Source of the DNA: Gammaproteobacteria bacterium
GTDB taxonomy: Bacteria > Pseudomonadota > Gammaproteobacteria > Natronospirales > REEB76
Direction: 5' to 3'
Assembly: GCA_049591455.1 (NCBI GenBank)
Contig: JBAWFA010000004.1
Span: 287,135 to 351,134 of the forward strand
DNA length: 64,000 nt
Every line of letters begins with the position of its first letter. The first letter of the stretch is position 1. A program made the translations under genes and the position numbers. Shown in pieces: positions 20,215 through 55,183 of the stretch. Under the pieces are notes generated by a model, which was not told the origin of the DNA, did no database searches, and saw only the letters and a program-made list of their open reading frames with translations.

Positions 20215-22170
20215 TCACAACCTGGAAGACGGCGGCGGAGGTGCCGGCGGTGCCGTACGCGGGGTACGGATTTCCGCGAAGCGCAGGCGCAGACCCAGTT
20301 CCACGGTGCGGTCTGGCGGAATCTGGTAGAAATCGGTGGCGCGGATGGCATTGCGCGACATGAAGGTAAATAATTTTTCACGCCAGGCCATCATGGTGGG
20401 CATGTTCTTCGTGGGCACAAGTGTTTCACGCCCGATGTAGTACGTGGTGGTTTCAGGATCAATCACCAAACCGCAATCCTTGGCGCGCCGCAGCGCTTGC
20501 GGCACGTTGGGTATCTGCATGAAACCGTAGTGAGCTAGCACACGGTAGAAACCCTGATCCAGTTTTTCCACTTCCAAACGACGCTGGGGATGTACGAACG
20601 GCACGTCTTCCGTGAGCACAGTGAGCAGCACGACCTGCTCGTGCAGCACCTGGTTGTGCTCCAGATGATGCTGCAACATGGGTGGCGTGCCAAGATTGGG
20701 CGCGGTCATGAAAATAGCGGTGCCGTGCACGCGCACGGGTTGCAGAAGTCTGATGTGATTCAGGAATTCATGCAGTGGTTCGGTACTGGCCCGCAGACGG
20801 TCAATTAGATTCTGCCGTCCGGTCGCCCATGTGGTCATAATGGTGAAACCCACCAATCCCACCAATAGCGGCAGCCAGCCGCCGTCCCATATCTTGAAGA
20901 TGTTGGCCAGGAAATAAACGAAATCCACGATAAAAAAGCATGAGATGATGGGCGCCACAATGGCGATGTTCCAATGCCAGCGTTCGCGCATGGCCAGGAA
21001 CAGCAGCATGGTGGTAATGAGCATGGTGGAACTCACCGCCACACCGTAAGCGGCGGCGAGATTGTCGGAAGTCTTGAATCCCAACACGATAAGGATGGTA
21101 GCAATGGCCAGAATCCAATTGAGGGAAGGAATATAGATCTGGCCTTCCTTGTCAGGCGAGGTACGCACGATGGTCAGCCGTGGACTCTGGCCGAACTGGA
21201 TAGCTTGGCTCATGAGCGAAAAGGCACCTGAAATGATCGCCTGCGAAGCGATCACCGTGGCGGCAGTAGCCAGGGCCACAAGTGGATAGAGCATCCACGA
21301 CGGCGCCAGGCTGTAAAACAACTGAGTAACGGGCTTATTCGGATTGGCAAGGATGGCCGCACCCTGACCGAAATAATTGAGCAGCAACGCCGGAAAAACG
21401 TACACAAACCACGACAGACGGATGGGGGCCTTGCCAAAATGGCCGATATCAGCATACAACGCTTCGGCGCCGGTCACGCACAGAAACACCGCGCCCAAAA
21501 CCACGATGTCAGCAAAACCGTGGTGAAAGATGAAATGCAGGGCATACGCCGGATTGACGGCTGCCAGCACCGCCGGATAACGCAGAACAGCCACCAACCC
21601 GAGCCAAGCGATGACGAGGAACCACAGCATCATGATGGGGCCGAACACGAAGCCCACCCTTTTGGTGCCGTTTTTCTGAAACACAAAGAGCAAAAACAGC
21701 ACAATGATTGTGATGAAGATGATCACAGAGCGATCCAGGGACGGTGTGGCCACCTGCAGCCCTTCCACGGCGCTCAACACCGAAATGGCCGGCGTGATCA
21801 TGCCGTCGCCGTAGAGCAGCGCCGCGCCGAATATCCCCAGGGAAATGAGGATGCGGGAACGCTTGCTGCGGCGCATGCGCCAAGGATCCAGCAGGGACAG
21901 CAGCGCCAGAATGCCACCTTCGCCCTTGTTGTCCGCACGCAGCACGAACAACTGGTACTTCACACAGACGATGATAATCAGCGACCAGAAAACCAGGGAA
22001 ATCACGCCGAGCACGTTTTCCGGAGTCGGTGTTAGACCATAAGCTGAAGAAAACGGGCTGCTGATGGCGTAAAGAGGACTGGTGCCGATATCGCCGAACA
22101 CCACGCCAAGCGCGCCGAGGCTTAGAGCCAGCATGCGTTTCCGGCCCACCGGCCCTGCCTCACCGTTCAT
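20215..22170 (-). CDS. kup: KUP/HAK/KT-family K+ uptake transporter (start 22170-22257)
   Basis: LGALGVVFGDIGTSPLY near the N-terminus, 12 TM-like segments and a cytoplasmic C-domain. Confidence 0.95.
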   Translation of the reverse strand: MNGEAGPVGRKRMLALSLGALGVVFGDIGTSPLYAISSPFSSAYGLTPTPENVLGVISLVFWSLIIIVCVKYQLFVLRADNKGEGGILALLSLLDPWRMRRSKRSRILISLGIFGAALLYGDGMITPAISVLSAVEGLQVATPSLDRSVIIFITIIVLFLLFVFQKNGTKRVGFVFGPIMMLWFLVIAWLGLVAVLRYPAVLAAVNPAYALHFIFHHGFADIVVLGAVFLCVTGAEALYADIGHFGKAPIRLSWFVYVFPALLLNYFGQGAAILANPNKPVTQLFYSLAPSWMLYPLVALATAATVIASQAIISGAFSLMSQAIQFGQSPRLTIVRTSPDKEGQIYIPSLNWILAIATILIVLGFKTSDNLAAAYGVAVSSTMLITTMLLFLAMRERWHWNIAIVAPIISCFFIVDFVYFLANIFKIWDGGWLPLLVGLVGFTIMTTWATGRQNLIDRLRASTEPLHEFLNHIRLLQPVRVHGTAIFMTAPNLGTPPMLQHHLEHNQVLHEQVVLLTVLTEDVPFVHPQRRLEVEKLDQGFYRVLAHYGFMQIPNVPQALRRAKDCGLVIDPETTTYYIGRETLVPTKNMPTMMAWREKLFTFMSRNAIRATDFYQIPPDRTVELGLRLRFAEIRTPRTAPPAPPPPSSRL

Positions 22171-22445
22171 GACGCGGGACCGCATGCTTTGTGTAGCGGT
22201 ACTTGTTTCCGGCTTGTTCACCCAACGTCTCCCCGCCCCAACACTCCCAAAACACAACCGGCCGGTCTCGTTCGAGCACCAGCCGGCATCGTGCTAATCC
22301 TGCATTTCTATTGGCGGGCGGTTATATGCCCTGCCCCGTTCAGGGCGCGCATTGTACCTCCAAAGCCAATATGCTTAAAACCATATGCTGCCGAGACTGA
22401 CCGGTGGCAAGTGCTTGTTTCGCAAAGATCACGGCACGTGAGCTG

Positions 22446-25698: not shown

Positions 25699-26178
25699 TC
25701 ATTGGTTGGAAATGGTGAGTGTGTGGCCCGTGGCGTTTTCGATATCGCCGTCAGTGGCCAGTACCTGGACGATGGCCGTGAGCGCGTCGTCCGATGACAG
25801 CACTGATGCCAGCAGCCCTTTGCCGATATCGAGCAGTCCGCGCGCGAGGCCTGGCGCGATACAGCCTTCGAGCTGCCATGCCTGGTTGGCCGAGTGGATC
25901 TCGCAGCAGCTGCGCGCTGTGACGCCGGTGGGCACCAGTGACGGATAGGCATAGATGCCGAGCGCCGGATTGTGCAGGCACCAGGTCCAGCGCCCGTGCC
26001 TGGGTGAGTAGTAAGGCATCAGAACGTAGACGCCCACGGGCACGCAGGACTGATCGGGTTCGTTATCGGCCCATGGCAGTTCCATGGTGTATATCGGCGG
26101 CAGCGGTGCATCGGTGATGCTGAATTTGCCCTGGGCGCAGTCGATGCTCCGTAGATCCCGGATGAGCTGTGCTTGCAT
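25699..26178 (-). CDS. DUF5675-like protein (candidate non-canonical cell-wall hydrolase)
   Basis: MELPWADNEPDQSCVPVGVY...CCEIHSANQAWQLEGCIAPG matches the DUF5675 pattern (LPW.dN....SCIP.G.Y ... IH.gN....eGCI..G) as I recall it. The His..GC dyad resembles the YkuD fold. Confidence 0.45.
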   Translation of the reverse strand: MQAQLIRDLRSIDCAQGKFSITDAPLPPIYTMELPWADNEPDQSCVPVGVYVLMPYYSPRHGRWTWCLHNPALGIYAYPSLVPTGVTARSCCEIHSANQAWQLEGCIAPGLARGLLDIGKGLLASVLSSDDALTAIVQVLATDGDIENATGHTLTISNQ

Positions 26179-26188
26179 GGATATCTCC

Positions 26189-26611
26189 CTAGGGGTGGAT
26201 GATGCCTTCGCGGACGAAGAGCAGCGTGGTTACCACGATCCAGATCAGGGTCAGCGCTGACCAGAAGCCGATCCCGCGATTCACCCACTTCTGCGCAAAT
26301 TCCTTGGTCTTGACGATGCTGACTTCGATTTGTGCATGTGCCTGTTCATCGGCCTTTTCATGCTCATCGTGGCGACGGGTCAGTGCATCGATTGAAGCGA
26401 ACGCGCGCTGCAGGCCTTCGGACTGTGCCTTCTGCTCTCCCTGCAGCCTGATGATCTCGCCGAGCTGTCCACGCATGGCTTCCATCGTTCCTTCCTGTCG
26501 CTGCATGGTCATCACCAGTTGCTCATTGGTCTGACGAATGCTTTGCAGGGATAACTCACAGGCTTGCAGGCGTCCTTCCATATCGATTGCTCGAACGGTT
26601 TTGATGTTCAC
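26189..26611 (-). CDS. Coiled-coil protein with C-terminal TM anchor (hypothetical)
   Basis: GTG start, heptad-like Q/E/R-rich helix, and a C-terminal WSALTLIWIVVTTLLFV. Confidence 0.4.
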   Translation of the reverse strand: MNIKTVRAIDMEGRLQACELSLQSIRQTNEQLVMTMQRQEGTMEAMRGQLGEIIRLQGEQKAQSEGLQRAFASIDALTRRHDEHEKADEQAHAQIEVSIVKTKEFAQKWVNRGIGFWSALTLIWIVVTTLLFVREGIIHP

Positions 26612-26623
26612 CGTCGCCTCCTG

Positions 26624-26983
26624 TCAGGGTTGTGAAAGATACGCGCGCTCAGCCGCGCATTCCGCCGCCAGGCCGTCCTCATTCGTGAGGACCGCGTTGA
26701 GGGCTTCCTGTTTGATCGCGGCCGGGTTCGTAGAACCATCGATGAGACTCATCTTCGGGCAGCCCGCGTGTATATGCACCACGATGGGCTGCCCTTCGCT
26801 GTTCAGGATGGGCTTGCCGGCCGCATCCACGGCGCGCGCCGTGGCTTTCCACGAAAACATATGCGGTGCTGCGTGTTCGCCTTTCTTGAAGCGCACGGCT
26901 GCAAGATCACCGGTCGAGAGCTTATAGCCGGTCTCACCCGGGTTCATGTTGGGGATGGTGGCTGCTTCAAAAGTGATGCTCAT
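26624..26983 (-). CDS. Hypothetical protein downstream of tail fibre (119 aa)
   Basis: Internal ATG 26983 (MSITFEAATIPNMNPGE..), 8 nt after the fibre stop. No motif recognised. The position suggests a fibre accessory or chaperone role. Confidence 0.4.
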   Translation of the reverse strand: MSITFEAATIPNMNPGETGYKLSTGDLAAVRFKKGEHAAPHMFSWKATARAVDAAGKPILNSEGQPIVVHIHAGCPKMSLIDGSTNPAAIKQEALNAVLTNEDGLAAECAAERAYLSQP

Positions 26984-26990
26984 GGGGACC

Positions 26991-29900
26991 TCACGGTTTA
27001 CCTGCTCCATTGTGCAGAATCGCGCCGTCTCTATAGGCAAGGAAGGCATGCGGCTCCGCGACGTTCAGAATGATCTTCTCCGATTCATCTGTGAAAGGTT
27101 CGATGCTTTGTACGATGAGTCCGCGCGCGAGGGCATCGCCTGGCTTCAAATTGTGGGCGCGTATCCACTTCCCTTCTGCATCCAGGAAGGGCTGCGTTTC
27201 CGTCACGAAGTAGGCGTGACGATCTATCGTGATTTTGAGCCACGTGCTGCACGGCTCACGAGAGAGACTGAGGATTGGCGCGGTGCCATCGGGCGTCAAT
27301 ACTTCGTCACCAACAACCAGTTGGTCTGCAAGTTTGAATGGAGCCTCAACTGTGACAACGGGTTGGTAGGGATGCAGGCAGCCACCTGTACCGCCGCTGC
27401 CACCGGAACCGCTTGCCGGGGTTTCCCAAAACCCGAGATAAACCGTGTCCGGGCTGCCAGTCAGTGAACTGATCTTGCTGGTGCTGGCATTGAGCGTGGC
27501 TGAGCCGCCCTGGAATCCGGGATCAATGTAGTACAAATAATAGGTGGTGCTGGCGGTCAGGCCGGATACGCTGCTCGAGTTGTACGAAACATTCCCGGTG
27601 CCACTGCCCCCCATTTCAAGCGTGCAGGCGCTTGCTGTTATCTTATTGGGATTCGGTGAGGTAAGTGTCAGTCCTGAAATGTAGTACCCGACACCCGCGC
27701 TTGTAACCGCGCGAACGGTGGTCGCGGAACCAAGTTGCGCGCCTCCACCATCAATGACCGTCTGCGTTCCAGTTCTAAGCGTTGGGTTCTTCAGGGTCGC
27801 TGTGCCGCCGGAGGCGCCCCCATTCACAACGACGCGGAAGGCGCCGTAAGCGGTGCCACTCGGGCAATTGTATGAAACTATGGAAGTAACCCCGTCGGTG
27901 CTAGTAGCGGTTGGAAAAATGGAGGAGATGAATGTTTCCTTGTCAGCTTCGTAGAACAAAAGTTGAGGATAGACAGTCGCGGTGCCAGTTACCGCCGTCA
28001 AATTCACAGAGATGGAAACAGGCGTGTTTGGATTCATTGGGAAAAATGCCGTGTTTCCCTGGTCGTCAGTTGCAGTGAGAGTGGGGCTTCCGGATGCTGC
28101 GGCTGTAATGTCAATCTTGGGTGAAGTCAACGTGAAGGAGGCACTACAGGTCCAATAATCCATCGTTGCAAGCGTGGCGTTCTTGAGCAGGTTACTGTCC
28201 CAGGTGACCTGCGTGACCATGGTGATGTTTGTAACATCGGAGTTAGGGCTTGCCTGTGACCAGAAATTCGTGGCTGTGACGTAGTACCAATACTCGGTTT
28301 CGTACTCAGCTGAGCTGTCCAGATAGCTGTCGCCCACGACATTCGCGATCGCCGTGAAGCCGGAACTGCTGGAGGTGCTGCTGCGATAGACTGTCTGGTA
28401 ATCGAAGGTGTTCGGCGCCGGGCTTGTCCAATTAAGCAGGATGCCTTTGGCGGAACTGCTGGAAGTCAGACTGGAGGGTGCCCCCGGCGCGCTCGGGGTG
28501 ATGTCATAGAGCTCCTGGTAATCCGGTGTGTTGTAGGCCTGGTAAACGCCGTCGGGTGTTGACGGTAAGGTGTAGGTCCCGCTATTTTCCTGCACCAGCA
28601 TCATCTTGATGGTGTAATTGGTATTGTCGAGCCTGTATTGCATGATGCGGAACGGGGCATCCGAGAGATTCAGCTCACTGATATTCACCTCGATGACATC
28701 GCCGCCCTTGAAGTTGAGCGCTTTGAGGTTGCAGACCAGGTTCAGAACCTGCTTGTTGCGGGTCTTTTTAAGCGCGATGCGCTCAAGGATCTGGCACTGA
28801 AACTGGTTGTTGCAACCCGGGATCGTGTCGCTCACCCACAGCCGCACATTGCCATCATCCGCTTCGTAGGTTGAATTCGTCAGCGGCGCGCCCTGTGCCT
28901 GGTTGTAGTCCTGCTGCGGCTCCTGTCCATAGGTGAACTTCACGGCATTCCCCATTTGCGAGCGTTGGATCTGTGGCGAGTAGCCAGCGGATCCGGCCAG
29001 GAATGTCTCATCCAGCGTTCCGCTGGAGGTGGTCGTGGCGCCGGCATACATGTAGATCTGACCGCCGGAAACGACAATGAAGCCCGCCATGGTCTTCAAG
29101 ATATCGGCCACGTTTTGATCACAGTTCTGGTTCGTCTGCACCGCCATGTTGCACGAATAAGTGCTTACATCGACGGTGGTGGACCAGGCGCCATCAGAGA
29201 ACGTCGCGCCATAGGCCGGCACCGAAACTTCTTCATCACAGATGTTCGCGGCCGCGGCCACGCAAGCCCAGTTCACCTGGGAGTTGATGACGCTTGAACC
29301 TGAATAGGTGCCGGGGCTGTATCCACACCCACCATCATTCTTCAGCCGTGTCAGATAGTCGGCCAGGATCAGTGCGGGGTTGCTTGAGAAGGCCCACGTC
29401 GTCGTATCGGTCAACCGCTGTGAGCCGCTGCCACCGTTGTCCGAATCAAGCCGCGGGTCGTAGAGCAGCTGTCCGGCAATGACGACCTTGAGTGTGCCCG
29501 GCGTGTTCAGACCGTTCGGGAAGGCACCGGTGAAGGTCCCCTGGTCGGCCGACATGAACAGTACCCAGGTGCTGTAGGAGATCCCGTACCCGATGAAGGT
29601 ACTGGCGACATCAAGTTCGGAGGTAAGAATAGGATCAGCGGTCGTTTGTGAGCCATCGCTGAAACTCATCCACAAATTACCGGCTAGATTATTCCATGGT
29701 TCGTTGGAGCCGTCGTCCACGCCCTGTGTGATTGAACAGGCGCCCGTACCGCTCGCCTCCCCACGTCCCGCATTCCAGCCGCCGAATGAGTCATCTGTCA
29801 GCAGCGGGACAAACACATCGTTGATATAAAAGCCCTGGATGCCCTCCACCGGCATCCCAGCGGTGCCGGCTGAGTTCTGGCGCGTGAGGCTGTGGGCAAT

Positions 29901-30200
29901 CGTGACCGTGAGATAAGCGTTCGTGTTCGAACCGTTGCTGCCGTAGGGATTGCAATAGCACAGGACACCACCGGTGCAGATCTCCCCATACACGATCTGT
30001 TGATTGGCAACACTGCCGCGGACGATACCGTCTTGTCCCGACGTGACCGGGTTCGGCATCAGCAGCAGCGACAATTCTGTGAAGGCGCCGCTGAAGAACA
30101 TGGCAGCGCCCATTGAGGCCAGTTCTTCGCCACCGAACTCATAGAGGACGGCGCCCACTACCATTTCGATAGCGCCCATTGTTTTGCCGGAGGAGCTCAT
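26991..30200 (-). CDS. Host-specificity / central tail fibre protein with FN3 domain and C-terminal Hint (intein-like) domain
   Basis: 1069 aa located after the GTA-like gp12-14 analogues. It has an FN3-like segment (APSSLTSSSSAKGILLNWTSP..YQTVYRS..YWYYVTA) and a Gly/Ser linker. This is followed by C-LHPYQPVV..VGDEVL..TETQPFL..PHAFLAYRDGAILHN-GAGKP-stop. Confidence 0.85.
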   Translation of the reverse strand: MSSSGKTMGAIEMVVGAVLYEFGGEELASMGAAMFFSGAFTELSLLLMPNPVTSGQDGIVRGSVANQQIVYGEICTGGVLCYCNPYGSNGSNTNAYLTVTIAHSLTRQNSAGTAGMPVEGIQGFYINDVFVPLLTDDSFGGWNAGRGEASGTGACSITQGVDDGSNEPWNNLAGNLWMSFSDGSQTTADPILTSELDVASTFIGYGISYSTWVLFMSADQGTFTGAFPNGLNTPGTLKVVIAGQLLYDPRLDSDNGGSGSQRLTDTTTWAFSSNPALILADYLTRLKNDGGCGYSPGTYSGSSVINSQVNWACVAAAANICDEEVSVPAYGATFSDGAWSTTVDVSTYSCNMAVQTNQNCDQNVADILKTMAGFIVVSGGQIYMYAGATTTSSGTLDETFLAGSAGYSPQIQRSQMGNAVKFTYGQEPQQDYNQAQGAPLTNSTYEADDGNVRLWVSDTIPGCNNQFQCQILERIALKKTRNKQVLNLVCNLKALNFKGGDVIEVNISELNLSDAPFRIMQYRLDNTNYTIKMMLVQENSGTYTLPSTPDGVYQAYNTPDYQELYDITPSAPGAPSSLTSSSSAKGILLNWTSPAPNTFDYQTVYRSSTSSSSGFTAIANVVGDSYLDSSAEYETEYWYYVTATNFWSQASPNSDVTNITMVTQVTWDSNLLKNATLATMDYWTCSASFTLTSPKIDITAAASGSPTLTATDDQGNTAFFPMNPNTPVSISVNLTAVTGTATVYPQLLFYEADKETFISSIFPTATSTDGVTSIVSYNCPSGTAYGAFRVVVNGGASGGTATLKNPTLRTGTQTVIDGGGAQLGSATTVRAVTSAGVGYYISGLTLTSPNPNKITASACTLEMGGSGTGNVSYNSSSVSGLTASTTYYLYYIDPGFQGGSATLNASTSKISSLTGSPDTVYLGFWETPASGSGGSGGTGGCLHPYQPVVTVEAPFKLADQLVVGDEVLTPDGTAPILSLSREPCSTWLKITIDRHAYFVTETQPFLDAEGKWIRAHNLKPGDALARGLIVQSIEPFTDESEKIILNVAEPHAFLAYRDGAILHNGAGKP

Positions 30201-30603: not shown

Positions 30604-31311
30604 TCAATCCTGTTTGTAGAACCCAGCCTCGCCGGCACCATTCCCGGGTTTTGTATTCCCACCGCGAGCATTGATGGCAAACTGAGACGGTCCTTGCATG
30701 CCCCAGTAGGTATAGGTGTAGGTCAGCGACGCCACATATTCATAGAACGTGTCAGTGCTGAAGGTGGTATTGTCAGCGGCACCCCGTGCCTGTTGGTCTT
30801 GTACCGTTTGCAGCATCCCGCTTTGGCGGTTCTGCAGGTCTGCGAGAAGGTTCTCAGCGTTGATCGTGATCGTGCCGGTGTTCTTTCCGAGCGAGATCGT
30901 GCAATCGCCCAGGAACATCGGCGTGCTGAAGAATGGGGTACTGTTCACCAGGTCATGGTTGGAATCCAAGAACCCCAGCGACCAGACGATGTTGACCCAT
31001 TGCACGTTGTTCGTACCACTGAGATTGTCGATCACGGTCTGATCGCAACCCGAGAGCATGAGCGTCATTGGCCGTGGCACACCATCGGTGCCTTCGTTGT
31101 AGTTCGTAATGGAGCCGAAGGGCATGCCGGTGGAGGTCACGGGGTTATAGGTATTACCGCCCCACGTATAGGATTTATGCGCGTTCGTGAGATAAAGATT
31201 GCCAGTGGGCAGATCGATTTCGAGGAACTCGACGATGCCGACAACGGTGGCGGCAACTTCGGTTGCCGGGTCTACCGTGTAACCAGAGGCTGGCAGCAGC
31301 GCGCGTGTCAT
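30604..31311 (-). CDS. Distal tail protein, DUF2163/GTA gp13-like
   Basis: 235 aa, positioned in the conserved TMP-gp12-gp13-gp14-fibre order, with ATGA coupling to its upstream neighbour. Similarity is judged by pattern only. Confidence 0.45.
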   Translation of the reverse strand: MTRALLPASGYTVDPATEVAATVVGIVEFLEIDLPTGNLYLTNAHKSYTWGGNTYNPVTSTGMPFGSITNYNEGTDGVPRPMTLMLSGCDQTVIDNLSGTNNVQWVNIVWSLGFLDSNHDLVNSTPFFSTPMFLGDCTISLGKNTGTITINAENLLADLQNRQSGMLQTVQDQQARGAADNTTFSTDTFYEYVASLTYTYTYWGMQGPSQFAINARGGNTKPGNGAGEAGFYKQD

Positions 31312-32123
31312 AATGTCACATCCTCCATGAGCGACAAGGCCATGGCGGCGATCCGCGGCGGCGTATAGCTGATGCTGGCATCCGGCTTGCTGAACGCAAA
31401 CACCGCATTACACGGTGACAATACGATGGAATTGCCACTGACCGGACTGAATCTCAATGCAGGCTCGAAGTCGATCGTAGCTACGCCAGAGCCATTACTG
31501 GCGGCGCTCGCCGTCACCATCAGCAACTGATGCTGCATGGTGGTTGTGTAATCCGTGGTGTAGGTCTGCAGTACGGCATTCACATATACGTTGTAGCCTG
31601 TGAAGAATGCATTGGGGAGATTGAATGTTGTGGCGACTCCATTGCCGGTCCCGATTGCAATGGAATTACCATAGAAATCTTCGGCGGTGATGGCATAGGT
31701 GTTGGCAGGGGCGGTCAAGAAGGTGATGGTGCCCCCATAGACTTGGAACATATCGCCCGGCAGCAGGATCCCGGAGATTGAGTCTGTCCAACCTTCGGTG
31801 AGCAGGCTGTTCCCGGTCTGCGAGCCACCATCGACGGTGGGCGTTCCTGTTCCAACACCCTGAATCTCATAGGCGTAATTTGGCAGCGCGGTACGAAAGC
31901 CGGCGCGCGACATCTGCATGGACCAGGCCAGCAACAACTGCGAGTCCGCATAGCTCAGCACGTTCCAGCTAAGGTCACAGCTGAAATAGGCACCCGGCCG
32001 CGCGATGTCCTGGAATGTGCCTGAGAGCGGGGATGTATTGCGGGCATCGAACCTGTTGAGTTTCCAATCTGATTTGTTGGCGTATTTGGAGAGGCTTGGG
32101 AAGGTCAAGATCGTCGGGTTCAT
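31308..32123 (-). CDS. Distal tail protein, DUF2460/GTA gp12-like
   Basis: Immediately follows the tape measure. ATG 32123 overlaps the TMP stop (ATGA). Size is about 270 aa. Confidence 0.45.
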   Translation of the reverse strand: MNPTILTFPSLSKYANKSDWKLNRFDARNTSPLSGTFQDIARPGAYFSCDLSWNVLSYADSQLLLAWSMQMSRAGFRTALPNYAYEIQGVGTGTPTVDGGSQTGNSLLTEGWTDSISGILLPGDMFQVYGGTITFLTAPANTYAITAEDFYGNSIAIGTGNGVATTFNLPNAFFTGYNVYVNAVLQTYTTDYTTTMQHQLLMVTASAASNGSGVATIDFEPALRFSPVSGNSIVLSPCNAVFAFSKPDASISYTPPRIAAMALSLMEDVTL

Positions 32124-34192
32124 GTCGACATCCATGCATTCCGATTAAGCCGGTACTCAGTCTGGCCACGCATTTCAGATAGGATGCTTTGACGCATCGC
32201 GAGCAGCTTGGCGGTTTCATCCGGTCCGGCACCCCGGGCATCAATGTTCACGGTGTGGCTGCTGGAACCGCCAAGACCCGCGAGTTGATTGTTAGGGATG
32301 ATGGTCCCGCTACTGTGCGGCATGAAGAGTTCCGGACCGGATTCGCCTACGAGCGAGACCTTGCCACCGGGCGCGATACCGCCGGCGGCATGCGAGCCAC
32401 CCGCCATGGCGCCAAACATGGAGGCGAAGAAGCCCCCTATTCCACTCTTCGCAGTACCGCCGCTGGAGAGCGATCCAAAAAGGCTGCTTAACAACTTCTG
32501 CGCTAGCATATTGGCCGCCATCTTTTGCATGGTCTTTGCGAAATCTTCACCCATGCCCCGTAGCCCCTCGTGGGTGTTCTCAAAGAACTTCGCAAAGGCA
32601 TTCTGCATGTTGCGGGCCGCCTGTTTGGCGAACTCGGACATGTCATTCGCTGTCTTCTTGATTTCCTGTTCCAACGGCGCGAGCGGCTTCAGCTTCGTCA
32701 TGCTCGCGAGCTCGTTGTTGGTATCGAGGATCCCTTGATTCAGTAATAGCGCCTCTTCAGTAGCGCTGCGCATGCCAGCTGGCAACGCCATCAAGGCCTT
32801 ATGCAGATCTCCGATATCGAGACGGTACTTCAGAATTGCTTCATCGGATTCCCCGTATGTGGCCACTTGCATCTGCAAACGCTGCTGCAGATCGGCAATG
32901 GAGTTCGTGAGCTTCTCGGTAGCTTTGGAGGCGGCCGTGGGCTGAGCACTTCCGAACACGGTGGGGGCGAGTGATTGAGGCGGTGTCGCCGTAGATGAAG
33001 AAGTGCTTCCAAATCCAACCTCATGGCCCTTGCCAGGAGTCTGTATGGTGACCAGGGCGTTATTCAGGTTTTTGAGAATCTGCTGCAGATGGTTGATCTT
33101 GCCCTGTAACAGATTCTGCGCGAAGCCGGTCTGGTTGGCCGGCATCATCATTTGGCCCTGCAATGACCCGATTTCATCCTTTATGCCTTTAATTTCATCC
33201 TTCAGCGACGCGATGCCTGGCGTGGCGGCATTGCTGCCTGTGGCGAGCTTCGCAAAGAACTCGCCCCAGTATTGTCCGGCTTCTCCGATGGCTGAAATGG
33301 CCTTGGCGGCCCATTCCGCCATCTTGGCAAGGCCGGTGATGACATTATCGAAGCCGGTCTTGATGGAGGGGTCTGTCAGCGTCTTCGCGAGGTCACTGAT
33401 GGCACCCGACATATCCCCGAGTGCCGGACTGTTGGCCTGATTCATCAGTCCGAAGATGGCGGTATGCAGACGGCCGGTGGCGGCCTGCAGAGAATCCTCG
33501 GCGCCAGCCAGAGCACCACTCATCGCCGGCGATTGCATCAGCTTCACGAAGGCATCCAGGAAATCGGAGCCGCTGATTGCGCCTTTGTGCATCTGCGCGA
33601 TGAATTTTTTCATGCCGTCGGCGCCGGCATACATGCTGTGTGAAATCAGCGGGCCCAAGCCCGCCCAGTCTCGGCCGAGTTGCTGGGTGAACTGGCGGCT
33701 CTGGACAGTCCCCATTGACATGATTTCGTTGAGCGCAAGCCACGAGCGGGTGCTCTGCTGGCTATTGAGGTGGAATACCCGCATCGCGCCGGAAACCGCG
33801 TAGAAGTCCTTGTCAATCTCAGACAGGGACATGCCGGAGCTGCGGCCGGTGAGCACAAAGCGGGCGAATGACTGCCCGACATCCTGGATTGAAAGGCCGA
33901 GCGTGTTGGCGGTTTGCTGGAGGAACTGGAGCTGTTTGGCTGTCTCCTGTGAACTCAGGCCGCCCGCTTCAAGCGTGTATTGCCAGCCCTGCCACTGCAC
34001 GGTGGCGTCATACACTTCGCGGGTGAGCCCTTCGAGCACGCGGATCGCGCCAAAGGCCACGAGTGCGCCTTTTACCTGGTTAACGGTCTGCCGCAGGCTG
34101 CTGAAATGCTGTTTAGATGCTTTGAGCTGTTCGTCGAGTTTGGCCGTATTGGCCTTCATATCGACGACCAGGGTGCCGATGGTAGCTGCCAT
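32120..34192 (-). CDS. Tail tape measure protein
   Basis: 690 aa, Ala/Gly/Gln-rich helical, with a conserved N-terminal tape-measure-domain-like region (..VSGAMRVFHLNSQQSTRSWLALNEIMSMGTVQSRQF..). Located after the G/GT chaperones. Confidence 0.9.
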   Translation of the reverse strand: MAATIGTLVVDMKANTAKLDEQLKASKQHFSSLRQTVNQVKGALVAFGAIRVLEGLTREVYDATVQWQGWQYTLEAGGLSSQETAKQLQFLQQTANTLGLSIQDVGQSFARFVLTGRSSGMSLSEIDKDFYAVSGAMRVFHLNSQQSTRSWLALNEIMSMGTVQSRQFTQQLGRDWAGLGPLISHSMYAGADGMKKFIAQMHKGAISGSDFLDAFVKLMQSPAMSGALAGAEDSLQAATGRLHTAIFGLMNQANSPALGDMSGAISDLAKTLTDPSIKTGFDNVITGLAKMAEWAAKAISAIGEAGQYWGEFFAKLATGSNAATPGIASLKDEIKGIKDEIGSLQGQMMMPANQTGFAQNLLQGKINHLQQILKNLNNALVTIQTPGKGHEVGFGSTSSSTATPPQSLAPTVFGSAQPTAASKATEKLTNSIADLQQRLQMQVATYGESDEAILKYRLDIGDLHKALMALPAGMRSATEEALLLNQGILDTNNELASMTKLKPLAPLEQEIKKTANDMSEFAKQAARNMQNAFAKFFENTHEGLRGMGEDFAKTMQKMAANMLAQKLLSSLFGSLSSGGTAKSGIGGFFASMFGAMAGGSHAAGGIAPGGKVSLVGESGPELFMPHSSGTIIPNNQLAGLGGSSSHTVNIDARGAGPDETAKLLAMRQSILSEMRGQTEYRLNRNAWMST

Positions 34193-38712: not shown

Positions 38713-39942
38713 TTACGAGCTCGCGAGCTGCACGCGCACGAAGGCCTCGGCGAGCACGGGCATCGCGTCGGTTTCCTTGCGCATGATGAAGCCCACCTGG
38801 TTGCTGGCTGCATACAGCTCATTCAGCTGTTGCATCTCCATGTCCAGGGCATCCGCGATCCAGTAGTACTTCAGGTTGCCGAGCAACCCGACGTACTCAT
38901 TTGCCGTGAATGTCGCCGGCACATACTCGGATTCCAGTACCGGGATGCCGAGCAGCAGATCGGGCTGCCCCGATTGCTGGCTCTGGTTCCACAGATACCG
39001 GCCATAGTTGTCCTTCAAGGTGGACACCTGGTTGATCGCCGAGCGGCTGAACAGCCACTGGCAAGCTGCCCGGTATTGCTGCTTCAGCCCGTACTTCGCA
39101 TTGAACAGGCCATCGAACCCGATGCTGGTATCGGTATTGCCGCTGCTCACATCACGGCTGGTATCGATGCCATTTGCCGAGGCCGTGAACAGGCCGAGCG
39201 GTTGCTGAGCGCCTGAACCCGTCAGGAACGCCTGCTCTTCGGTGATGCCGAAGATGTAGCTGAACCGGTCGCTGATGAGACCATCGATCGGGACTGCGGA
39301 GATCCGAGTCAGTTTCTTGCTGACCTTGATCTGCTTCGCGATGGGATGCGGCGACAGCTCGCGCAGACCAAAGTCCATCTGCGTGTCATCGCTGCCGGTG
39401 GACAGTTCGGTCGTCCAGTCTGCATCGGACGGCTCATCGTTCAAGGTAGGAACGCCCAGTGACTGGGAGTTCGTGACCGGATGCACGGTGCCGTATTTGC
39501 GCACCCACACCAGATCCTTGAGCTTGAGGATGATCTGGTTGACGAATTCCATCGGAGGCACCAGGAAGCCGCCGGTCGAACCGATGTCGGCCTGGAAGTC
39601 TCTGAATTCTGCAACACCTTCCATGTCGCGCGCTTCGTTTCCATAGCGCAGCCAGTTCCGGAAGCCCAGCATGCGCAGCTCATCCGGCGTCCTGGTCTGT
39701 GTGCCACGGTTCTCGTTGGCGGTCTCAGCTGCTATACGCGTGGCAAGTTCCCTATCCAGAGCCTCTTGATGCTCGCGACTTTCGATCTCTGCCTTGATCT
39801 CGGCCTGTTTGGCCATGAGTTCTGTATGTTTCGCACGTTCCTCGTTGCTGAGGTTGCGCTTTTCCGACTCGGCTTTTTCAATCAACCCGCGCGCCTGATT
39901 GATGACGCGGGTGCGTTCCTCGATAAGTTCTCTGATTTTCAT
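38713..39942 (-). CDS. HK97-family major capsid protein
   Basis: 409 aa with an N-terminal coiled-coil delta-like region (..AKHTELMAKQAEIKAEIESRE..), then ..GSTGGFLVPPEF-like (STGGFLVPPMEF) and the HK97-fold body. Follows the protease gene. Confidence 0.95.
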   Translation of the reverse strand: MKIRELIEERTRVINQARGLIEKAESEKRNLSNEERAKHTELMAKQAEIKAEIESREHQEALDRELATRIAAETANENRGTQTRTPDELRMLGFRNWLRYGNEARDMEGVAEFRDFQADIGSTGGFLVPPMEFVNQIILKLKDLVWVRKYGTVHPVTNSQSLGVPTLNDEPSDADWTTELSTGSDDTQMDFGLRELSPHPIAKQIKVSKKLTRISAVPIDGLISDRFSYIFGITEEQAFLTGSGAQQPLGLFTASANGIDTSRDVSSGNTDTSIGFDGLFNAKYGLKQQYRAACQWLFSRSAINQVSTLKDNYGRYLWNQSQQSGQPDLLLGIPVLESEYVPATFTANEYVGLLGNLKYYWIADALDMEMQQLNELYAASNQVGFIMRKETDAMPVLAEAFVRVQLASS

Positions 39943-40034: not shown

Positions 40035-41066
40035 TTAATCCAAAGTCTCCAATTCTGTCTTGAGCTTCACGATCTCAAGCGGCACTTCGTCCTCGACGGT
40101 GGCCGATGCGACATTGAGCGCCCGGTATTCCTCCAGGGCGCGAACGGCGACATGGGTTTTCTGGTATGCCGCCGACGTGACCGGTGACACGTCCAGGAGC
40201 TTGACGCTCTTGAGCGTGCGCACCATGGACTTGTCCGGCTGTTCATCCCAGCTCTGGCCACCAGGGTTGGTCCTGAAGCCGAAGCTCATCTTGTTGATAT
40301 CGCCACGCTTGATCAGATGTGTCACGTCGCGGCCAGCCTGTGTATCTGGCGGATCGATCTCCATGTGCAGCCCTAGGTCATCTTCCTTCAGCCGTAATGT
40401 GCCGGCGGATTTGCGGCCGAGCACATGATCCGGGTTGTGATTGAAGAGCGCGACCGGGTCATTCTCGTTATCGTTCAACGTGTCCTTGAACGCGCCTGGC
40501 GCGATCTTCTCGCGGAAGCCGCCCAGGTCCTGGCTCAGACTGCTGAAGACGGCGGCATGTCCGATGATTTTAGGTTTTGCATCGTCGCCGGCGCGGACCT
40601 CAATATCGTCCACGATGAAGGTACGGGTTTCATAATCCTCGCTGCTCGAACGTTGCCAGGGGACCTTGATTTCCTCATCGTCGAACGCCTTCGCCATTTT
40701 GGCGTAGTAGCGCTTGATATCAGCTTTGACGGCATCGCGATCCGCGACGGGGATCTGCACACCGCCGCGCGCGCCCTGAATAGCGGCGGCGGCGCCGTAA
40801 ATGCCTTTTGGAACTGCTGTAAGGCTCCCACCGATCACATCGGCGAACGGCAACTTGTAATCTCCGAAACGGTCTGGAACACCGTCCTTGTCAGGATCGG
40901 GTGCTGAACCGTCGAACCAGAAAAACGCCTGCGCATATTTTGGGTTTGGCGCTTTGTCGGCCTTGGCCCAGTTGCGCACGCGTTTGTCCGCTGCAGCGGC
41001 ATCCCATACGGTGTCTTTCGGAGCGAGCGGAAGATCGTGAAACTTAGGCGTGCTCATGTTGTTCAC
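40035..41066 (-). CDS. HK97-family prohead protease with ~150-aa N-terminal extension
   Basis: The C-terminal two thirds read ..IIGHAAVFSSLSQDLGGFREKIAPGAFKDTL..VALFNHNPDHVLG..MSFGF.. (S78-like). It ends in a coiled-coil tail. Confidence 0.9.
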   Translation of the reverse strand: MNNMSTPKFHDLPLAPKDTVWDAAAADKRVRNWAKADKAPNPKYAQAFFWFDGSAPDPDKDGVPDRFGDYKLPFADVIGGSLTAVPKGIYGAAAAIQGARGGVQIPVADRDAVKADIKRYYAKMAKAFDDEEIKVPWQRSSSEDYETRTFIVDDIEVRAGDDAKPKIIGHAAVFSSLSQDLGGFREKIAPGAFKDTLNDNENDPVALFNHNPDHVLGRKSAGTLRLKEDDLGLHMEIDPPDTQAGRDVTHLIKRGDINKMSFGFRTNPGGQSWDEQPDKSMVRTLKSVKLLDVSPVTSAAYQKTHVAVRALEEYRALNVASATVEDEVPLEIVKLKTELETLD

Positions 41067-42732
41067 CTGCTGTGTAACGGGAAGCGAGCTTGATCTCGCG
41101 CGTCACGATGTCGCTCGTGCGCTCGCATTCCCAAAGGGTTAAGAGCCGTTCGATGCCAGGTAAGCCCTCCGTCAGAAGTGCATCCCGGACCTGCGAGACC
41201 GACTCATTCATGTGGGTATCGACAAAACTCGACACATAAAGCGTCATGTCCTTGCGCTCTCCCTGCGCATCGGCGGCTACAGTACCAGCGATGGTGGCGG
41301 CTACCGGCCGTATCTGGCGCTCCACAAAGGGGCGATGCGTTGCATAGAAATCTGCGGCACTGCGTTCGAAGGTGTAGGCATTCCCACTGGCACCATTGAG
41401 CGCGCGTCGCAAGGCTTTCACCTCTGCCGTGACAATCTTGTCAATGGCTTGGCGCAGGTTGGGGAACTGCGCATCTACCAGACGCATGAGGCGTTTGCGC
41501 TGATCAGCCGGGTCTGGATCAGGCGCGAGCGGATCGGTTTTCTGGGCTGATGCCAGGTTCACCATCACGTAGTACTGATCACCGCCCTCGATGGGGTTGA
41601 GTCCTTCGCTGTCGCGGATCTCATTCGGACACATCGCCGCCATGTTGAACATGGCCTGGTAATAGGCTGTGCGCATGGCCGAATCGCCGCGCATCAGGTG
41701 CGAGACATCGAACTCGATGAAATATGCCGCGCGTCCCTTGGCGCTCAGCAGATCTGCATTTAGGCGCTGTTCCCAGCGCACCAGCCACGGCCGCAGCGTG
41801 TCACGCACAAACTCCATGGACTGCTGCTCGATGTTGCTGAACGTCGCACGTTCCAGGTCGGCGAGCATGTGCGGCGGGATCCGGAACATGCGTGCGATCT
41901 CGGAGATCTGGAACTTGCGCGTTTCCAGGAATTGCGCCTGCTCTGGTGATACGCCGATCGCCTGCCATTTGAGGCCGTCCTCCAGGATTGCCGGCTTGTT
42001 CGCGTTATAAGGCCCTTGGTGCCTCTCGTTCCAGCTGTCTTTCAGCCGCTTGTAGGCCACCTCGCTGAGCGGCTTATCGGACTGAAGTACGCCGCCGACA
42101 ACTGTGTTGTTGCCAAAGAAGGTGGCACCGAACTTCTCGGCCGCCTGGGCAAGTCCGATGGCTTCCTTGTTGTGCTCGATGACCGACTCGCCCTTGATGC
42201 CGTCCTCGCTGAAACAGCGGATATGCAGGATATCGTCGGGCGAATAGATGGTCACCGGTTTGTCCGGTGGCCGGTAAATGTAGCTCAGAGAACCGTTCGG
42301 GCGCCGAATCACCCGCATGAAATCAGGATGCAGCGGGCGCAGGCACGAGACCGCATTGTTCTGTGTCCCAATGATCTCCGCATAGGCATTCCCACGCAGT
42401 GTGAGGTGCCCGGTCAGCATCTCGCGCCATTCGAAGCTTGTCAGCTGCGGCGTCGGCGCATTGTGGAGCACCGAATACAAGGGATGATCGCCAGCGACTT
42501 CACGTCCACCACCAGGCAATCGCCGATAGATGTTCAGCGGAAGCGATGCAACTGACTCCGAGATGATGCGCACCGCCGTATAGACGGCTGCCAGCCGCTT
42601 TGCCGTCTGGGGAGTGACCGGAACACCGGCGGCGGTATTCGACAGTATCCCGAACCACTTCGCGATGACCGGATCCATCGGGTTGACGATGGATACGGAT
42701 GCACGTTTTTCGAACGCGCGCTCAAGAAGCAC
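41044..42732 (-). CDS. HK97-family portal protein (start 42678-42816 uncertain)
   Basis: ..AAVYTAVRIISESVASLPLNIYRR..HPLYSVLHNAPTPQLTSFEWREMLTGHLTLRGNAYAEI.. is the typical portal N-region. It has a long C-terminal extension. Confidence 0.9.
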   Translation of the reverse strand: MLLERAFEKRASVSIVNPMDPVIAKWFGILSNTAAGVPVTPQTAKRLAAVYTAVRIISESVASLPLNIYRRLPGGGREVAGDHPLYSVLHNAPTPQLTSFEWREMLTGHLTLRGNAYAEIIGTQNNAVSCLRPLHPDFMRVIRRPNGSLSYIYRPPDKPVTIYSPDDILHIRCFSEDGIKGESVIEHNKEAIGLAQAAEKFGATFFGNNTVVGGVLQSDKPLSEVAYKRLKDSWNERHQGPYNANKPAILEDGLKWQAIGVSPEQAQFLETRKFQISEIARMFRIPPHMLADLERATFSNIEQQSMEFVRDTLRPWLVRWEQRLNADLLSAKGRAAYFIEFDVSHLMRGDSAMRTAYYQAMFNMAAMCPNEIRDSEGLNPIEGGDQYYVMVNLASAQKTDPLAPDPDPADQRKRLMRLVDAQFPNLRQAIDKIVTAEVKALRRALNGASGNAYTFERSAADFYATHRPFVERQIRPVAATIAGTVAADAQGERKDMTLYVSSFVDTHMNESVSQVRDALLTEGLPGIERLLTLWECERTSDIVTREIKLASRYTAGEQHEHA

Positions 42733-42895
42733 TGGTTTCGTCCTTCGGCGCACGTGCCGTCCATGCAATGAGGGCCGCAAATGCCAGCATGAAGGCGCCG
42801 GCGACGGCGCATCCAAGCGCCATATTGACCAGCGCCGCGGCTACCGTACAGGCGAGCGCGCCGCAGATGGCGAGTATGTCGGACAGATACTTCAC
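42722..42895 (-). CDS. 57-aa two-TM peptide between terminase and portal (hypothetical)
   Basis: My translation from a GTG overlapping the terL TGA (GTGA) gives VKYLSDILAICGALACTVAAALVNMALGCAVAGAFMLAFAALIAWTARAPKDETSAS. It is below the track length cut-off. Confidence 0.3.
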   Translation of the reverse strand: MKYLSDILAICGALACTVAAALVNMALGCAVAGAFMLAFAALIAWTARAPKDETSAS

Positions 42896-44670
42896 AGGGT
42901 TCGTATGCCTCGCTCATCGTAGACTGACTTCGATACGGCGGGTTCATGCATGACGGTCGCACGTCCCAGCGCCATCAGCATCGCTACCATGGGATCAATT
43001 TTTTCGAGTGAGTTCTTCTTGTCCGGCGCCATGTTCTCGTTCTGATCGCGCCGCGCCACGATGTTCGACGCCGACCAGGTCAGTACCGGGCTGCCGTCAT
43101 GATCGACCTTCGCGCCCTTGAGCAGCCGTTCGAACTCTTTCATCGCCGGGTGGTAGCTCTTGGCGCCCTGGCGGAATTCCACCATCGGCGCGCCATTCTC
43201 CTGCAGCCGGTTCACGACGCTGGTCGCGTTCCAGGGATCGAAGGCGATTTCCTTGATCTTGAAGCGCCGCATGGCCGCTTCGATGTCGCGCTGCACAAAG
43301 GCGTCGTCGAACACGTTGCCCGGCGTCAGCGTCAGGAACTTCTGTACAGCCCACACCTGGTACGGCACGTTGCCGCGCTCGGATCTGGGCGCAACCGTCT
43401 CTTCCGGCAGGTAACACCGCGCATGGATCTTGAGACGCCCGTCCACCAGCCAGACCAGCACGAAGGCCGTGATGTCTGAGGTGGCCGCGAGATCGAGACC
43501 GCCAAAACCCTCCACCTCCTGAAGTGCATCGAGGTCAATCGTTTTGCCGCAGCGCTTCCACTGCTCCATGTTGAGCCAGCCCTTATGCGCCGTCGTCCAT
43601 CGGTTGAGGCGCTTCGTCAGGAACTCGCCGCGACTGTCGGGCGATTGCTTGGCTTCCTTGGCATAGCTGCGCATGGATTCGAGGCTAGGCGTGATCCCCA
43701 GCATCGGGTTGGCCTTGATCCAGACCTTCTCGTCATATTCGTCATCGCCCTCATCAAGAGTGAAGATGACACCGAAATAGTGGTCGGCGCTGAAAATGCC
43801 GTCCAGGATGTTCTCTACCAGGCGATGCTGCTCATAGCACACGCCGATGCTGTTATAACCGGCCGTCGTGATGCGCCACATCAACGGATTCTTGCGCGAA
43901 CCGAATGACGATTTGATCACGTCATGTAGCCCACGATCCTTGTGGGCATGCAGCTCGTCCAGAATCCCGACATGCGGATTCCAGCCATCCTGCGTCGAGG
44001 ACTTGGCATTGATCGGCTGGATGAAGCCGTCGTTAATCCCGCAGCTGATCGAATGCGCCCAGGCCTTCACATCGAAGGCTTCGCGCAGTTCGCGCGTTCT
44101 CTGCACCATGCGCAGCGCTGGGTTGAACACCTTGAGCGCCTGGCTGCCAGTGGTGGCGCCTATCACCACCTGGGGTCCGGGTTCATGTTCGGACGTCAGG
44201 CAATACAAACCGATGCCGGCGGTGAGGGTGGATTTAGCTCCCTTGCGCGCCATCTCGATGTAAACGTCCGTGAAACGCCTGGCGCGCGTATCGCGCCGGC
44301 GAAACCCGAACACGTTCACCAGAATGAATATCTGCGGCGGTTCAAGCCGGATCGTTTTGGTTGCCCAGCTCCCCTCGATATGCGGCAGCTTTTCTATGAA
44401 GTCGCAGACGTTGTTGCCTTCCCAGGCATCGAAACTGAAATAGCAGCCAGCGGTCTTGGCGCGCTTCAGATCATCCAGAAATCGGCGCGCAGCCTTCTGC
44501 AGCCACCTGCAGTGAGTGAGATGCCTGCGATCCGCGATGGCCGCAGCGGCAAAATCATAGGCCAACTGGCAGTAATTACTTGCGTGGCCGGTCTCTGCGA
44601 ATACTGGCTTGCTCGATTTCTTAGGCCGGCGCCCGGAGATTGCGCGTGAACGGGTTTTCCGTTTTTTCAT
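42892..44670 (-). CDS. terL: Terminase large subunit
   Basis: 592 aa with a Walker-A-like MARKGAKST, an ATPase and nuclease two-domain layout, and the Terminase_1-type pattern. Confidence 0.95.
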   Translation of the reverse strand: MKKRKTRSRAISGRRPKKSSKPVFAETGHASNYCQLAYDFAAAAIADRRHLTHCRWLQKAARRFLDDLKRAKTAGCYFSFDAWEGNNVCDFIEKLPHIEGSWATKTIRLEPPQIFILVNVFGFRRRDTRARRFTDVYIEMARKGAKSTLTAGIGLYCLTSEHEPGPQVVIGATTGSQALKVFNPALRMVQRTRELREAFDVKAWAHSISCGINDGFIQPINAKSSTQDGWNPHVGILDELHAHKDRGLHDVIKSSFGSRKNPLMWRITTAGYNSIGVCYEQHRLVENILDGIFSADHYFGVIFTLDEGDDEYDEKVWIKANPMLGITPSLESMRSYAKEAKQSPDSRGEFLTKRLNRWTTAHKGWLNMEQWKRCGKTIDLDALQEVEGFGGLDLAATSDITAFVLVWLVDGRLKIHARCYLPEETVAPRSERGNVPYQVWAVQKFLTLTPGNVFDDAFVQRDIEAAMRRFKIKEIAFDPWNATSVVNRLQENGAPMVEFRQGAKSYHPAMKEFERLLKGAKVDHDGSPVLTWSASNIVARRDQNENMAPDKKNSLEKIDPMVAMLMALGRATVMHEPAVSKSVYDERGIRTL

Positions 44671-55121: not shown

Positions 55122-55183
55122 GAGGCGGTAAGCGAAATGAGAAAGGGCGTCCCGCAACGACCTCATGTCATATATTAAGTATT

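Follow-up and report, generated by a model that had tools for sequence, protein, structure and literature searches.

Type A bacterial intein-like (BIL) domains share the C-terminal His-Asn of inteins but have no nucleophile at the position that follows it (+1); they form a thioester at their N-terminal junction and cleave the C-terminal one by Asn cyclisation, giving mostly cleavage products, with ligation possible when the freed alpha-amine attacks the thioester (PMC4031507). Another Hint domain, the BIL2 of BUBL, is reported to make a K(epsilon-NH2)-C-terminus isopeptide and to pass the domain upstream of it on to Lys residues without ATP (PMC8616854). Here we examine a domain of this kind at the end of a phage tail fibre, encoded in a 64,000-nucleotide stretch of DNA (hereafter the window) from a Gammaproteobacteria bacterium (GenBank assembly GCA_049591455.1, contig JBAWFA010000004.1, positions 287,135 to 351,134). 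The coordinates, the linker, the initial Cys, the TETQPFL motif, the terminal Asn, the GAGKP tail and the stop codon named in an original prediction from the DNA letters were all found in place on re-reading (Table 1). That prediction had proposed a Hint autoprocessing domain. The matches of its family profile, its predicted fold and the conservation of its catalytic residues lead us to regard membership of the Hint superfamily as established: the module is a genuine Hint domain, of the bacterial-intein-like kind. Self-excision from the fibre is its most probable activity.

The Hint module and its family

Searched as a single sequence, the module is hard to recognise. Against Pfam, Cys941-Asn1064 alone gave PT-HINT (PF07591) at E=0.007, with 17.1-17.5 bits against a cut-off of 27.7 and ~30 residues aligned. 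As a single query it returned only a chance-level match to the intein-bearing aIF2 model from NCBIfam, no match from PHROGs, and only linker artefacts from a phmmer search of the PDB; a word-indexed homologue search gave 0 matches with the module and only 3 with the family profile described below. Run exhaustively over 1.84 billion cluster representatives, phmmer retrieved 68 proteins (E<=1e-3), and 47 C-terminal modules from homologues, 20-43% identical to the window module, were aligned (alignment A1). Exactly two columns of A1 are invariant, Cys1 and the terminal Asn, and its consensus has the intein motifs VTxxHxF (block B), PHLYY (block F) and LSHN (block G). When the A1 profile was compared with the PDB, its best match was the mini-intein gp41-1, aligned from end to end (E=3.7e-15); the BIL domain 2lwy of Clostridium thermocellum (E=7e-10), the PT-HINT of Streptomyces UmbC (8w20; E=1.8e-6), BUBL BIL2 (E=2e-5) and other inteins were matched too. 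The entry 8w20 was identified as the Streptomyces umbrella toxin UmbC via PMC11062931. Pfam scans of single A1 members recovered PT-HINT in 17/47, Hint_2 in 12/47, Intein_splicing in 7/47 and Vint in 2/47. The Pfam check proposed along with the original prediction came out below threshold for the single sequence. Taken by itself, and by the refuting condition stated with that prediction, this outcome would have led to a wrong rejection of the Hint assignment; only the family profile resolves the module.

An AlphaFold2 model built from A1 is all-beta, with a predicted local distance difference test score (pLDDT) of 95.7 and a predicted template modelling score of 0.88; its last block (the tail) has a pLDDT of 75. 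The top 50 matches of this model in a Foldseek search of the PDB were all inteins, BILs or Hedgehog HhC domains (template modelling score, TM, 0.79-0.84), so that the proposed structural check agreed with a Hint domain and pointed to no unrelated fold. In BFVD, the uncultured-phage proteins A0A8S5UY86, A0A8S5MW95, A0A6J5NYB8 and A0A218MKA3 match the model as well as terminase inteins; these four are named only 'Hint', 'Fibronectin type III' or 'gp62' and are known here from the model match and the name.

A profile search of the fetched homologous proteins found 58 terminal modules, 54 of which are fibre-terminal. The 54 represent independent 50%-identity clusters, and the counts that follow are on these unless A1 is named; the census comes from one single-sequence exhaustive search and is a lower bound (at least 54 clusters). 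Every fibre-terminal module sits at the extreme C-terminus of a gpJ-like phage tip protein, after poly-Gly. Since this layout recurs in 54 independent clusters with Cys1 and Asn as the sole invariant columns, it lies far beyond chance. Cys1 was found in 46/46 complete N-terminal junctions and the terminal Asn in 54/54, preceded by His in 49 cases, Lys in 4 and Val in 1. The +1 residue is Gly in 23 modules, Pro in 9, Lys in 5, Val in 4, Leu in 3, Ala, Ile, Asn and Ser in 2 each, and Gln and Thr in 1 each; it is never Cys. This makes it non-nucleophilic in 51/54 and Ser or Thr in 3/54, and in the window it is Gly1065.

Both flanks of the module are distinctive. Gly occupies position -1 in 24/46 junctions, and positions -10 to -1 hold a mean of 7.2 Gly. 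After the Asn comes a tail of 3-7 residues that contains Lys in 53/54 modules, against ~8 expected from the module composition; the distance of this Lys from the Asn varies from +1 to +5, it is usually the penultimate residue of the protein, and 45/54 tails end in Lys-Pro. The statement that there is no real C-extein does not hold in view of this conservation. Further motifs particular to the family are the CLHP start, PHLYY and SHN-x-KP. Judged from the alignment, the C-L-H-P start is peculiar to this family and does not form part of the usual intein block A. His943 (27372-27374), at module position 3, gives this start its form and is His in at least 90% of A1; BUBL BIL2 is reported to be zinc-regulated through a histidine (PMC8616854).

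Several relatives vary this layout. In one sub-group (P0148, P0156, P0164, P0180 and P0187) the modules end in SHN-K-(V/L)-(L/Y)-C, with Lys at +1 and Cys as the last residue, giving two potential nucleophiles in the tail. In P0128, P0144, P0163, P0169, P0176, P0179 and P0183, 2-4 Hint modules stand head to tail, joined by '...VHN-K-G(1-4)-C(F/L)...', in an array that follows an N-terminal 'RGGGG' and precedes a Tim44-like domain (PF04280 in P0144). The flanks in these arrays resemble those of the fibre family, with poly-Gly before Cys1 and Lys straight after Asn ('HN-K-GGG-C'), and if all the tandem modules were to excise themselves, nothing but KGGG spacers would remain of the arrays. P0130 (1304 aa) has two internal modules of the same family, at residues 804-932 and 970-1100, that start 'TCPAPEMR' and are followed by 'HNK(S/T)PLPPT', a non-terminal context with Lys at +1.

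Searches of other collections gave little. The alignments A1 and A3 are without any conserved stretch of 7-10 columns. A search of GTDB representative genomes and IMG/VR based on alignment A2 returned no validated relatives, and the back-translated DNA pattern 'HNGTVKP*' had no match in IMG/VR. In a tblastn search of 50,697 deposited phage genomes the window module was unmatched, and a His-type module had only partial matches, in Lak megaphages. As no member turned up in the phage genomes, IMG/VR or the GTDB representatives, the family is so far known only from metagenome assemblies, with no cultivable host identified.

The active site of the window module departs from that of most of its relatives. 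The block-B His is the most conserved residue of inteins and is essential together with Gly at -1 in Ssp DnaB; a small group of natural inteins without it, orthologues of Tko CDC21-1, stays active via another, compensating residue (PMC6333167). The family-profile alignment to gp41-1 puts Gln1003 of the window in the TxxH His column, which in A1 holds His in 39 modules, Gln in 7 and Ser in 1 (n=47). The Gln sub-clade includes the window, and its modules are 32-43% identical to that of the window; throughout it, Gln63, Lys102, Cys1, His-Asn-Gly and Lys-Pro are invariant. Lys102 accompanies Gln in 7/7 modules and occurs in 4/39 His-type modules, counts that are not phylogenetically independent. 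To us this pattern looks like a co-adapted active site rather than decay, and the invariance of Gln63 and Lys102 is consistent with a functional variant active site. A natural Gln block B with a co-varying Lys would provide a natural experiment on scissile-bond activation by Hint domains.

Comparison of fibres with and without the module bears on how it is acquired. The ~120-residue beta-domain upstream of the linker has homologues in the Hint-bearing proteins P0129, P0058, P0164 and P0009, and also in the Hint-less P0007 and P0093 and, more weakly, P0028. Its AlphaFold2 model has a core pLDDT of ~85 and a disordered stretch over the first 37 residues, and a fold search with it gave no significant match (best E=0.2). 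The genes of P0007 and P0028 are complete and keep the same synteny. The Hint-less proteins end in poly-Gly and a Pro-terminated tail of 3-12 residues that contains Glu and no Lys (three alleles only): ...GGGDTGGDG-NTEIP in P0007, ...GGSGSGGTGD-IEP in P0028 and ...GGGGTSGGGATPPGWQPGDYYEP in P0093 (poly-Gly, then ...YEP). Because these alleles also end in it, the poly-Gly belongs to the fibre whether or not Hint is present, and the Hint has the look of a piece inserted between this poly-Gly and a short tail with a final Pro. Both tip-domain clusters bear a mixture of Hint subtypes (Gln or His type; tails ...KP or K(V/L)LC). The GC content at third codon positions (GC3) declines along the fibre gene, from 0.73 (residues 1-640) to 0.61 (641-940) and 0.59 (Hint), which suggests that the tip-plus-Hint cassette has another source than the conserved N-terminal part. 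The shuffling of subtypes against tip domains and the lower GC3 of the C-terminal third both fit cassette exchange. Its behaviour in these comparisons is that of an exchangeable insert and not of an aid on which folding depends.

Predicted chemistry and competing explanations

The best reading of the module, and in our judgement a probable one, is single-turnover self-excision by a type-A-BIL-like mini Hint domain, with ligation of the tail possible. The Hint domain in the last 129 residues is placed between the poly-Gly end of the fibre and a five-residue Lys-Pro tail, and on this account it would be removed from the fibre after translation or assembly. An N-S acyl shift at Cys941 would turn the Gly940-Cys941 peptide bond into a thioester, and cyclisation of Asn1064 would then break the bond to the GAGKP tail. 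The thioester would be resolved mainly by hydrolysis, leaving a fibre that ends in ...GGTGG-COOH; in a fraction, an amine of the released or tethered tail may resolve it instead, giving ...GGTGG-GAGKP or a Lys-linked isopeptide. From the fold, the architecture, the conserved junctions and the absence of a +1 nucleophile, all found here, we infer that these reactions occur, in this order and with this product. The view that the module cannot splice appears too strong, as type A BILs are able to ligate their flanks through the freed alpha-amine, though cleavage dominates (PMC4031507). Selection on the catalytic residues is most simply explained by a need to clear the Hint from the receptor-binding tip. 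A C-terminal domain could be shed by N-cleavage alone, and Hedgehog and type-B BIL domains need no such Asn. Because the Asn is invariant and the tail conserved in the fibre family, the reaction at the C-terminal junction would appear to matter as well.

Several observations weigh against self-excision. Since Ssp DnaB cannot dispense with its block-B His when Gly stands at -1, the N-S acyl shift may be slow or absent in the window, which has Gln1003 and Gly at -1, unless it is compensated. The conservation of Cys and Asn could in principle be structural, and the near-invariant tail Lys is needless for plain self-excision and is left unexplained by it. The window module alone is under every Pfam gathering threshold. 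Finally, the insertion picture draws on few cases, as three Hint-less alleles were found and just P0007 clusters with the tip domain of the window (BLAST).

The tail Lys would find a use if the Gly940 thioester were captured by a lysine amine in a purposeful acyl transfer rather than lost in simple excision, an alternative to the best reading, or an extension of it, that we consider unlikely though the foremost of the rivals. The most plausible acceptor would be the tail residue Lys1068, whose use would cap the fibre with a BUBL-like K(epsilon-NH2)-C-terminus isopeptide; a small part of this alternative places the acceptor Lys or amine on a different virion protein or at the host surface, so that the tip would be anchored covalently. 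The excess of Lys in the tails, with its varying distance from the Asn, argues for such a transfer, as do the Lys directly after Asn in the tandem-Hint relatives and the poly-Gly with Gly at -1 before Cys1, which is like the Gly-Gly/Cys junctions of ubiquitin-like proteins. BUBL BIL2, moreover, ranks with the best structural matches; it reportedly forms an isopeptide bond and conjugates the domain upstream of it to Lys of different substrates without ATP (PMC8616854), so that the proposed transfer from a Gly-thioester has a genuine precedent. Against this, the tail is modelled at lower confidence, the Hint-less alleles function without such chemistry, no further domain comparable to the sterol-recognition region of Hedgehog is present to place an external nucleophile, and the tail Lys could serve catalysis, folding or protection of the C-terminus instead. 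That the fibre-tip Hint is an acyl-transferase whose poly-Gly thioester is captured by a lysine epsilon-amine, be it of the tail Lys, a virion partner or the host surface, strikes us as rather unlikely. If true, it would account for features that otherwise lack an explanation, the poly-Gly before Cys1, the Lys just after Asn and the invariant Asn, and would give virus structural proteins their first described case of Hint-driven isopeptide chemistry.

The remaining explanations rank lower. It is quite improbable that a catalytically dead Hint stays on the virion, serving there as a tip domain with a structural or receptor-binding role. The loss of the most conserved intein residue to Gln, together with Gly at -1 (PMC6333167), would fit such a domain, as would its position at the distal end, where receptor contact is expected, and its sub-threshold Pfam score as a single sequence; a binding domain, however, would need neither Cys1 nor the terminal Asn, and these are the sole invariant positions while the surface varies. 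The Gln sub-clade also keeps Cys1, His-Asn and the co-varying, invariant Lys102, and natural inteins without the block-B His are active by compensation (PMC6333167). We would be surprised if the Hint were an obligatory analogue of an intramolecular chaperone, without which the tip would not trimerise or fold and which would afterwards be released, in the manner of the Peptidase_S74 domains of tailspikes and L-shaped fibres. An extreme C-terminal place on the fibre and a predicted self-removal do parallel what is generally known of S74 domains, but complete Hint-less alleles bear the same, homologous tip domain, which weakens the analogy drawn in the original prediction; Hint subtypes are shuffled against tip domains, Hint and tip domain are uncoupled by a long poly-Gly linker, and neither the full protein nor the module has an S74 match in Pfam at E<=10. 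Hint domains are, to our knowledge, monomeric autoprocessors with no role in oligomerisation, which also counts against a chaperone. We give next to no credence to a canonical (class 1) intein or to a PT-HINT that releases a C-terminal toxin, even though the best solved-structure profile match is the true mini-intein gp41-1, PT-HINT is the Pfam family that members match most often, and in polymorphic toxins HINT can be preceded by tail-fibre repeats (PMC3482391). Position +1 holds Gly in the window, never Cys in the family and Ser or Thr in no more than 3/54; a homing endonuclease is absent, the whole module being 124 residues; the 5 residues after the Asn leave no toxin domain; and the window module is under the PT-HINT gathering threshold. 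Canonical splicing chemistry and toxin release are both ruled out by sequence, the former by the +1 Gly and the latter by the five-residue tail.

The Hint domain and the type A BIL kind are already known, and automated annotation already flags a Hint domain here, the NCBI name for the exact fibre sequence being 'MAG: Hint domain-containing protein [Gammaproteobacteria bacterium]'. In the literature searched, which took in few subscription papers and had the original BIL papers outside it, we found no characterised Hint-processed siphovirus fibre, as the original prediction had supposed, and no description of a coherent Hint family at gpJ-like fibre C-termini, of fixed poly-Gly and 3-7-residue Lys(-Pro) flanks, or of a Gln/Lys active-site variant. 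The family at fibre tips is apparently undescribed. Sequence motifs specific to A-type BILs were reportedly given by Amitai et al. in 2003, and type A BILs are said to be treated also by Dassa in 2004. Phage receptor-binding proteins decide host range, and the maturation of their tips is known for few chemistries, such as the autocleavage of S74 chaperones. The family places intein-type thioester and asparagine-lyase chemistry at the gpJ-like fibre tip in at least 54 clusters and, if active, would be a new route of fibre maturation. An active module would also constitute a compact, 124-residue natural C-terminal tag that cleaves itself or generates a thioester, with a Gly linker and a 3-5-residue tail, of interest for protein ligation. 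The conserved tail Lys and the BUBL precedent raise the question of Lys-directed isopeptide 'splicing' by bacterial or viral Hint domains.

The fibre gene and its prophage

The fibre protein matches PHROG 5616 ('tail fiber protein') over residues 45-635 (E=6.6e-58), and its relatives bear PF13550 Phage-tail_3, Rcc01698_C and FNIII-A_GpJ domains. On the strength of this match and of the gpJ-type domains of the relatives, we take the protein to occupy the lambda J position, that of the central tail fibre or host-specificity protein; together with the gene order, these findings agree with the location first proposed, at the extreme C-terminus of a siphovirus-type central tail fibre. P0002 and P0004 match the N-terminal part of the fibre at 65-73% identity and differ in their C-terminal parts. 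Among relatives generally, the N-terminal 61% of the fibre is conserved and the C-terminal part divergent.

The gene lies inside a siphovirus-type prophage of ~32 kb, in the order tape measure, distal tail, tail, DUF6950, fibre. The same order is seen in the related loci L001-L004, where tape measure, two tail genes, DUF6950 and fibre are followed by a lysis cassette. Host genes flank the prophage: MetH and Kup lie at one end, tRNA-Ala and GltX at the opposite end.

Table 1. Features of the fibre gene and of the surrounding prophage (window positions)
Feature	Position	Strand	Basis or remark
gpJ-like central tail fibre / tip (host-specificity) protein gene, 1069 aa	26991..30200	-	Open reading frame, PHROG match, synteny
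Conserved N-terminal tail-tip region, residues 45-635	28296..30068	-	PHROG 5616 match
Beta-rich tip domain, residues 801-925, functionally N-extein	27426..27800	-	Homology in Hint-bearing and Hint-less proteins
Gly/Ser-rich linker ETPASGSGGSGGTGG, last residue Gly940 (-1)	27381..27425	-	Sequence read
Mini Hint domain, type-A-BIL-like, Cys941-Asn1064, 124 aa	27009..27380	-	Family profile, AlphaFold2 model, Foldseek
Cys941 codon (module Cys1)	27378..27380	-	Invariant A1 column; 46/46 complete junctions
Block B position T-E-T-Q, within TETQPFL	27192..27203	-	Alignment to gp41-1, family counts
Gln1003 codon, where the canonical block-B His stands	27192..27194	-	Sequence read
Lys1042 (module Lys102, block F), candidate compensating residue	27075..27077	-	Invariant in Gln-type sub-clade
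His1051 (module His111, block F 'PH.F/Y' motif)	27048..27050	-	His in 40/47 A1; aligns with gp41-1 'NHLFY'
His1063-Asn1064 (block G; ...AILHN), Asn predicted to cyclise, cleaving the C-terminal junction	27009..27014	-	Asn 54/54, His 49/54
Asn1064 codon	27009..27011	-	Sequence read
Five-residue tail GAGKP (mini C-extein), Lys1068 and terminal Pro1069	26994..27008	-	Family tail conservation
Stop codon of fibre gene	26991..26993	-	Sequence read
Large terminase	42892-44670		Prophage head/packaging gene
Portal	41044-42816		Prophage head/packaging gene
Major head protein	38713-39942		Prophage head gene
Tape measure	32120-34192		Prophage tail gene
Distal tail protein	31308-32135		Prophage tail gene
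Tail protein	30604-31311		Prophage tail gene
DUF6950	30197-30607		Gene just before fibre gene
140-aa coiled-coil protein with C-terminal transmembrane segment, no family	26189-26611		Downstream of fibre
DUF5675 protein	25699-26178		Downstream of fibre

Downstream of the fibre, an open reading frame called at 26624-27049 overlaps the fibre 3' end by 59 nt. Its likelier start is the ATG at 26983, with a Shine-Dalgarno sequence (GAGG) that overlaps the fibre stop codon, for a product of 119 aa that has no family match. A constraint on the Lys-Pro codons of the tail by the downstream ribosome-binding site was considered and rejected for the window, where the Shine-Dalgarno sequence overlaps the stop codon and not the tail; the spacing between fibre and downstream gene varies among loci, which also speaks against it. 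A GH108 endolysin occupies the corresponding downstream position in related loci. No downstream partner gene is common to the window and the related loci, and only L003 and L004 share one.

At one end of the prophage, a serine recombinase gene (53593-55086, +) overlaps with its 3' end a tRNA-Glu (55046-55121, -), and tRNA-Ala (55184-55259) and GltX adjoin this end. The attachment site is probably at a tRNA gene, within window positions 53593-55259. The other end is near 22.5 kb, beside Kup (20215-22257).

Comparison with known systems

The fibre module is type-A-BIL-like, and its defining features set it apart from canonical inteins, toxin-releasing PT-HINTs and Hedgehog-type domains. With Peptidase_S74 it shares a functional analogy only, that of a C-terminal self-removing module on a phage fibre; its fold and chemistry are unrelated to S74, which uses a Ser-Lys dyad. 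Its likeness to Hedgehog HhC is one of generic fold (1at0 and 6tyy, TM 0.71-0.74), and unlike HhC it has an invariant terminal Asn and is not followed by a sterol-recognition or adduct-recruiting region. PT-HINT (PF07591; UmbC 8w20), matched by 17/47 members, is sometimes found on stalks of tail-fibre repeats and sits just upstream of the toxin that it releases (PMC3482391), whereas the fibre Hint is followed by 5 residues only.

The gp41-1 mini-intein (cyanophage-like, PDB 6qaz) is alike in size (~125 aa), fold, Cys1, consensus TxxH, block F His and His-Asn. Unlike class 1 mini-inteins, the fibre Hint has no Cys, Ser or Thr at +1 in the window, a C-extein of 5 residues and, again in the window, no block-B His, and it does not interrupt a housekeeping protein at a conserved active-site region. 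A top structural match (E ~2e-7, TM 0.76-0.79) is BUBL BIL2 of Tetrahymena thermophila (PDB 6y75/6tmm), and both it and the fibre Hint follow the Gly-rich C-terminus of an upstream domain (Gly-Gly/Cys in the window). BIL2 is eukaryotic, and in the fibre the upstream beta-domain is not ubiquitin-like and a pentapeptide, not a second ubiquitin-like domain, lies downstream.

Type A BILs come closest. The fibre Hint differs from them in being always C-terminal, with poly-Gly before it, a 3-7-residue Lys-bearing tail after it and gpJ-like proteins as its hosts, and it has motifs of its own family and, in the sub-clade of the window, Gln in place of the block-B His. With CthBIL4 (2lwy; TM 0.79) it has in common the Hint fold, Cys1, the C-terminal His-Asn, the lack of a +1 nucleophile and the predicted chemistry, a likeness by features in which the profile match to 2lwy alone serves as proxy for the A-type motifs. 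Both lie in the hypervariable region of a non-conserved surface or secreted protein.

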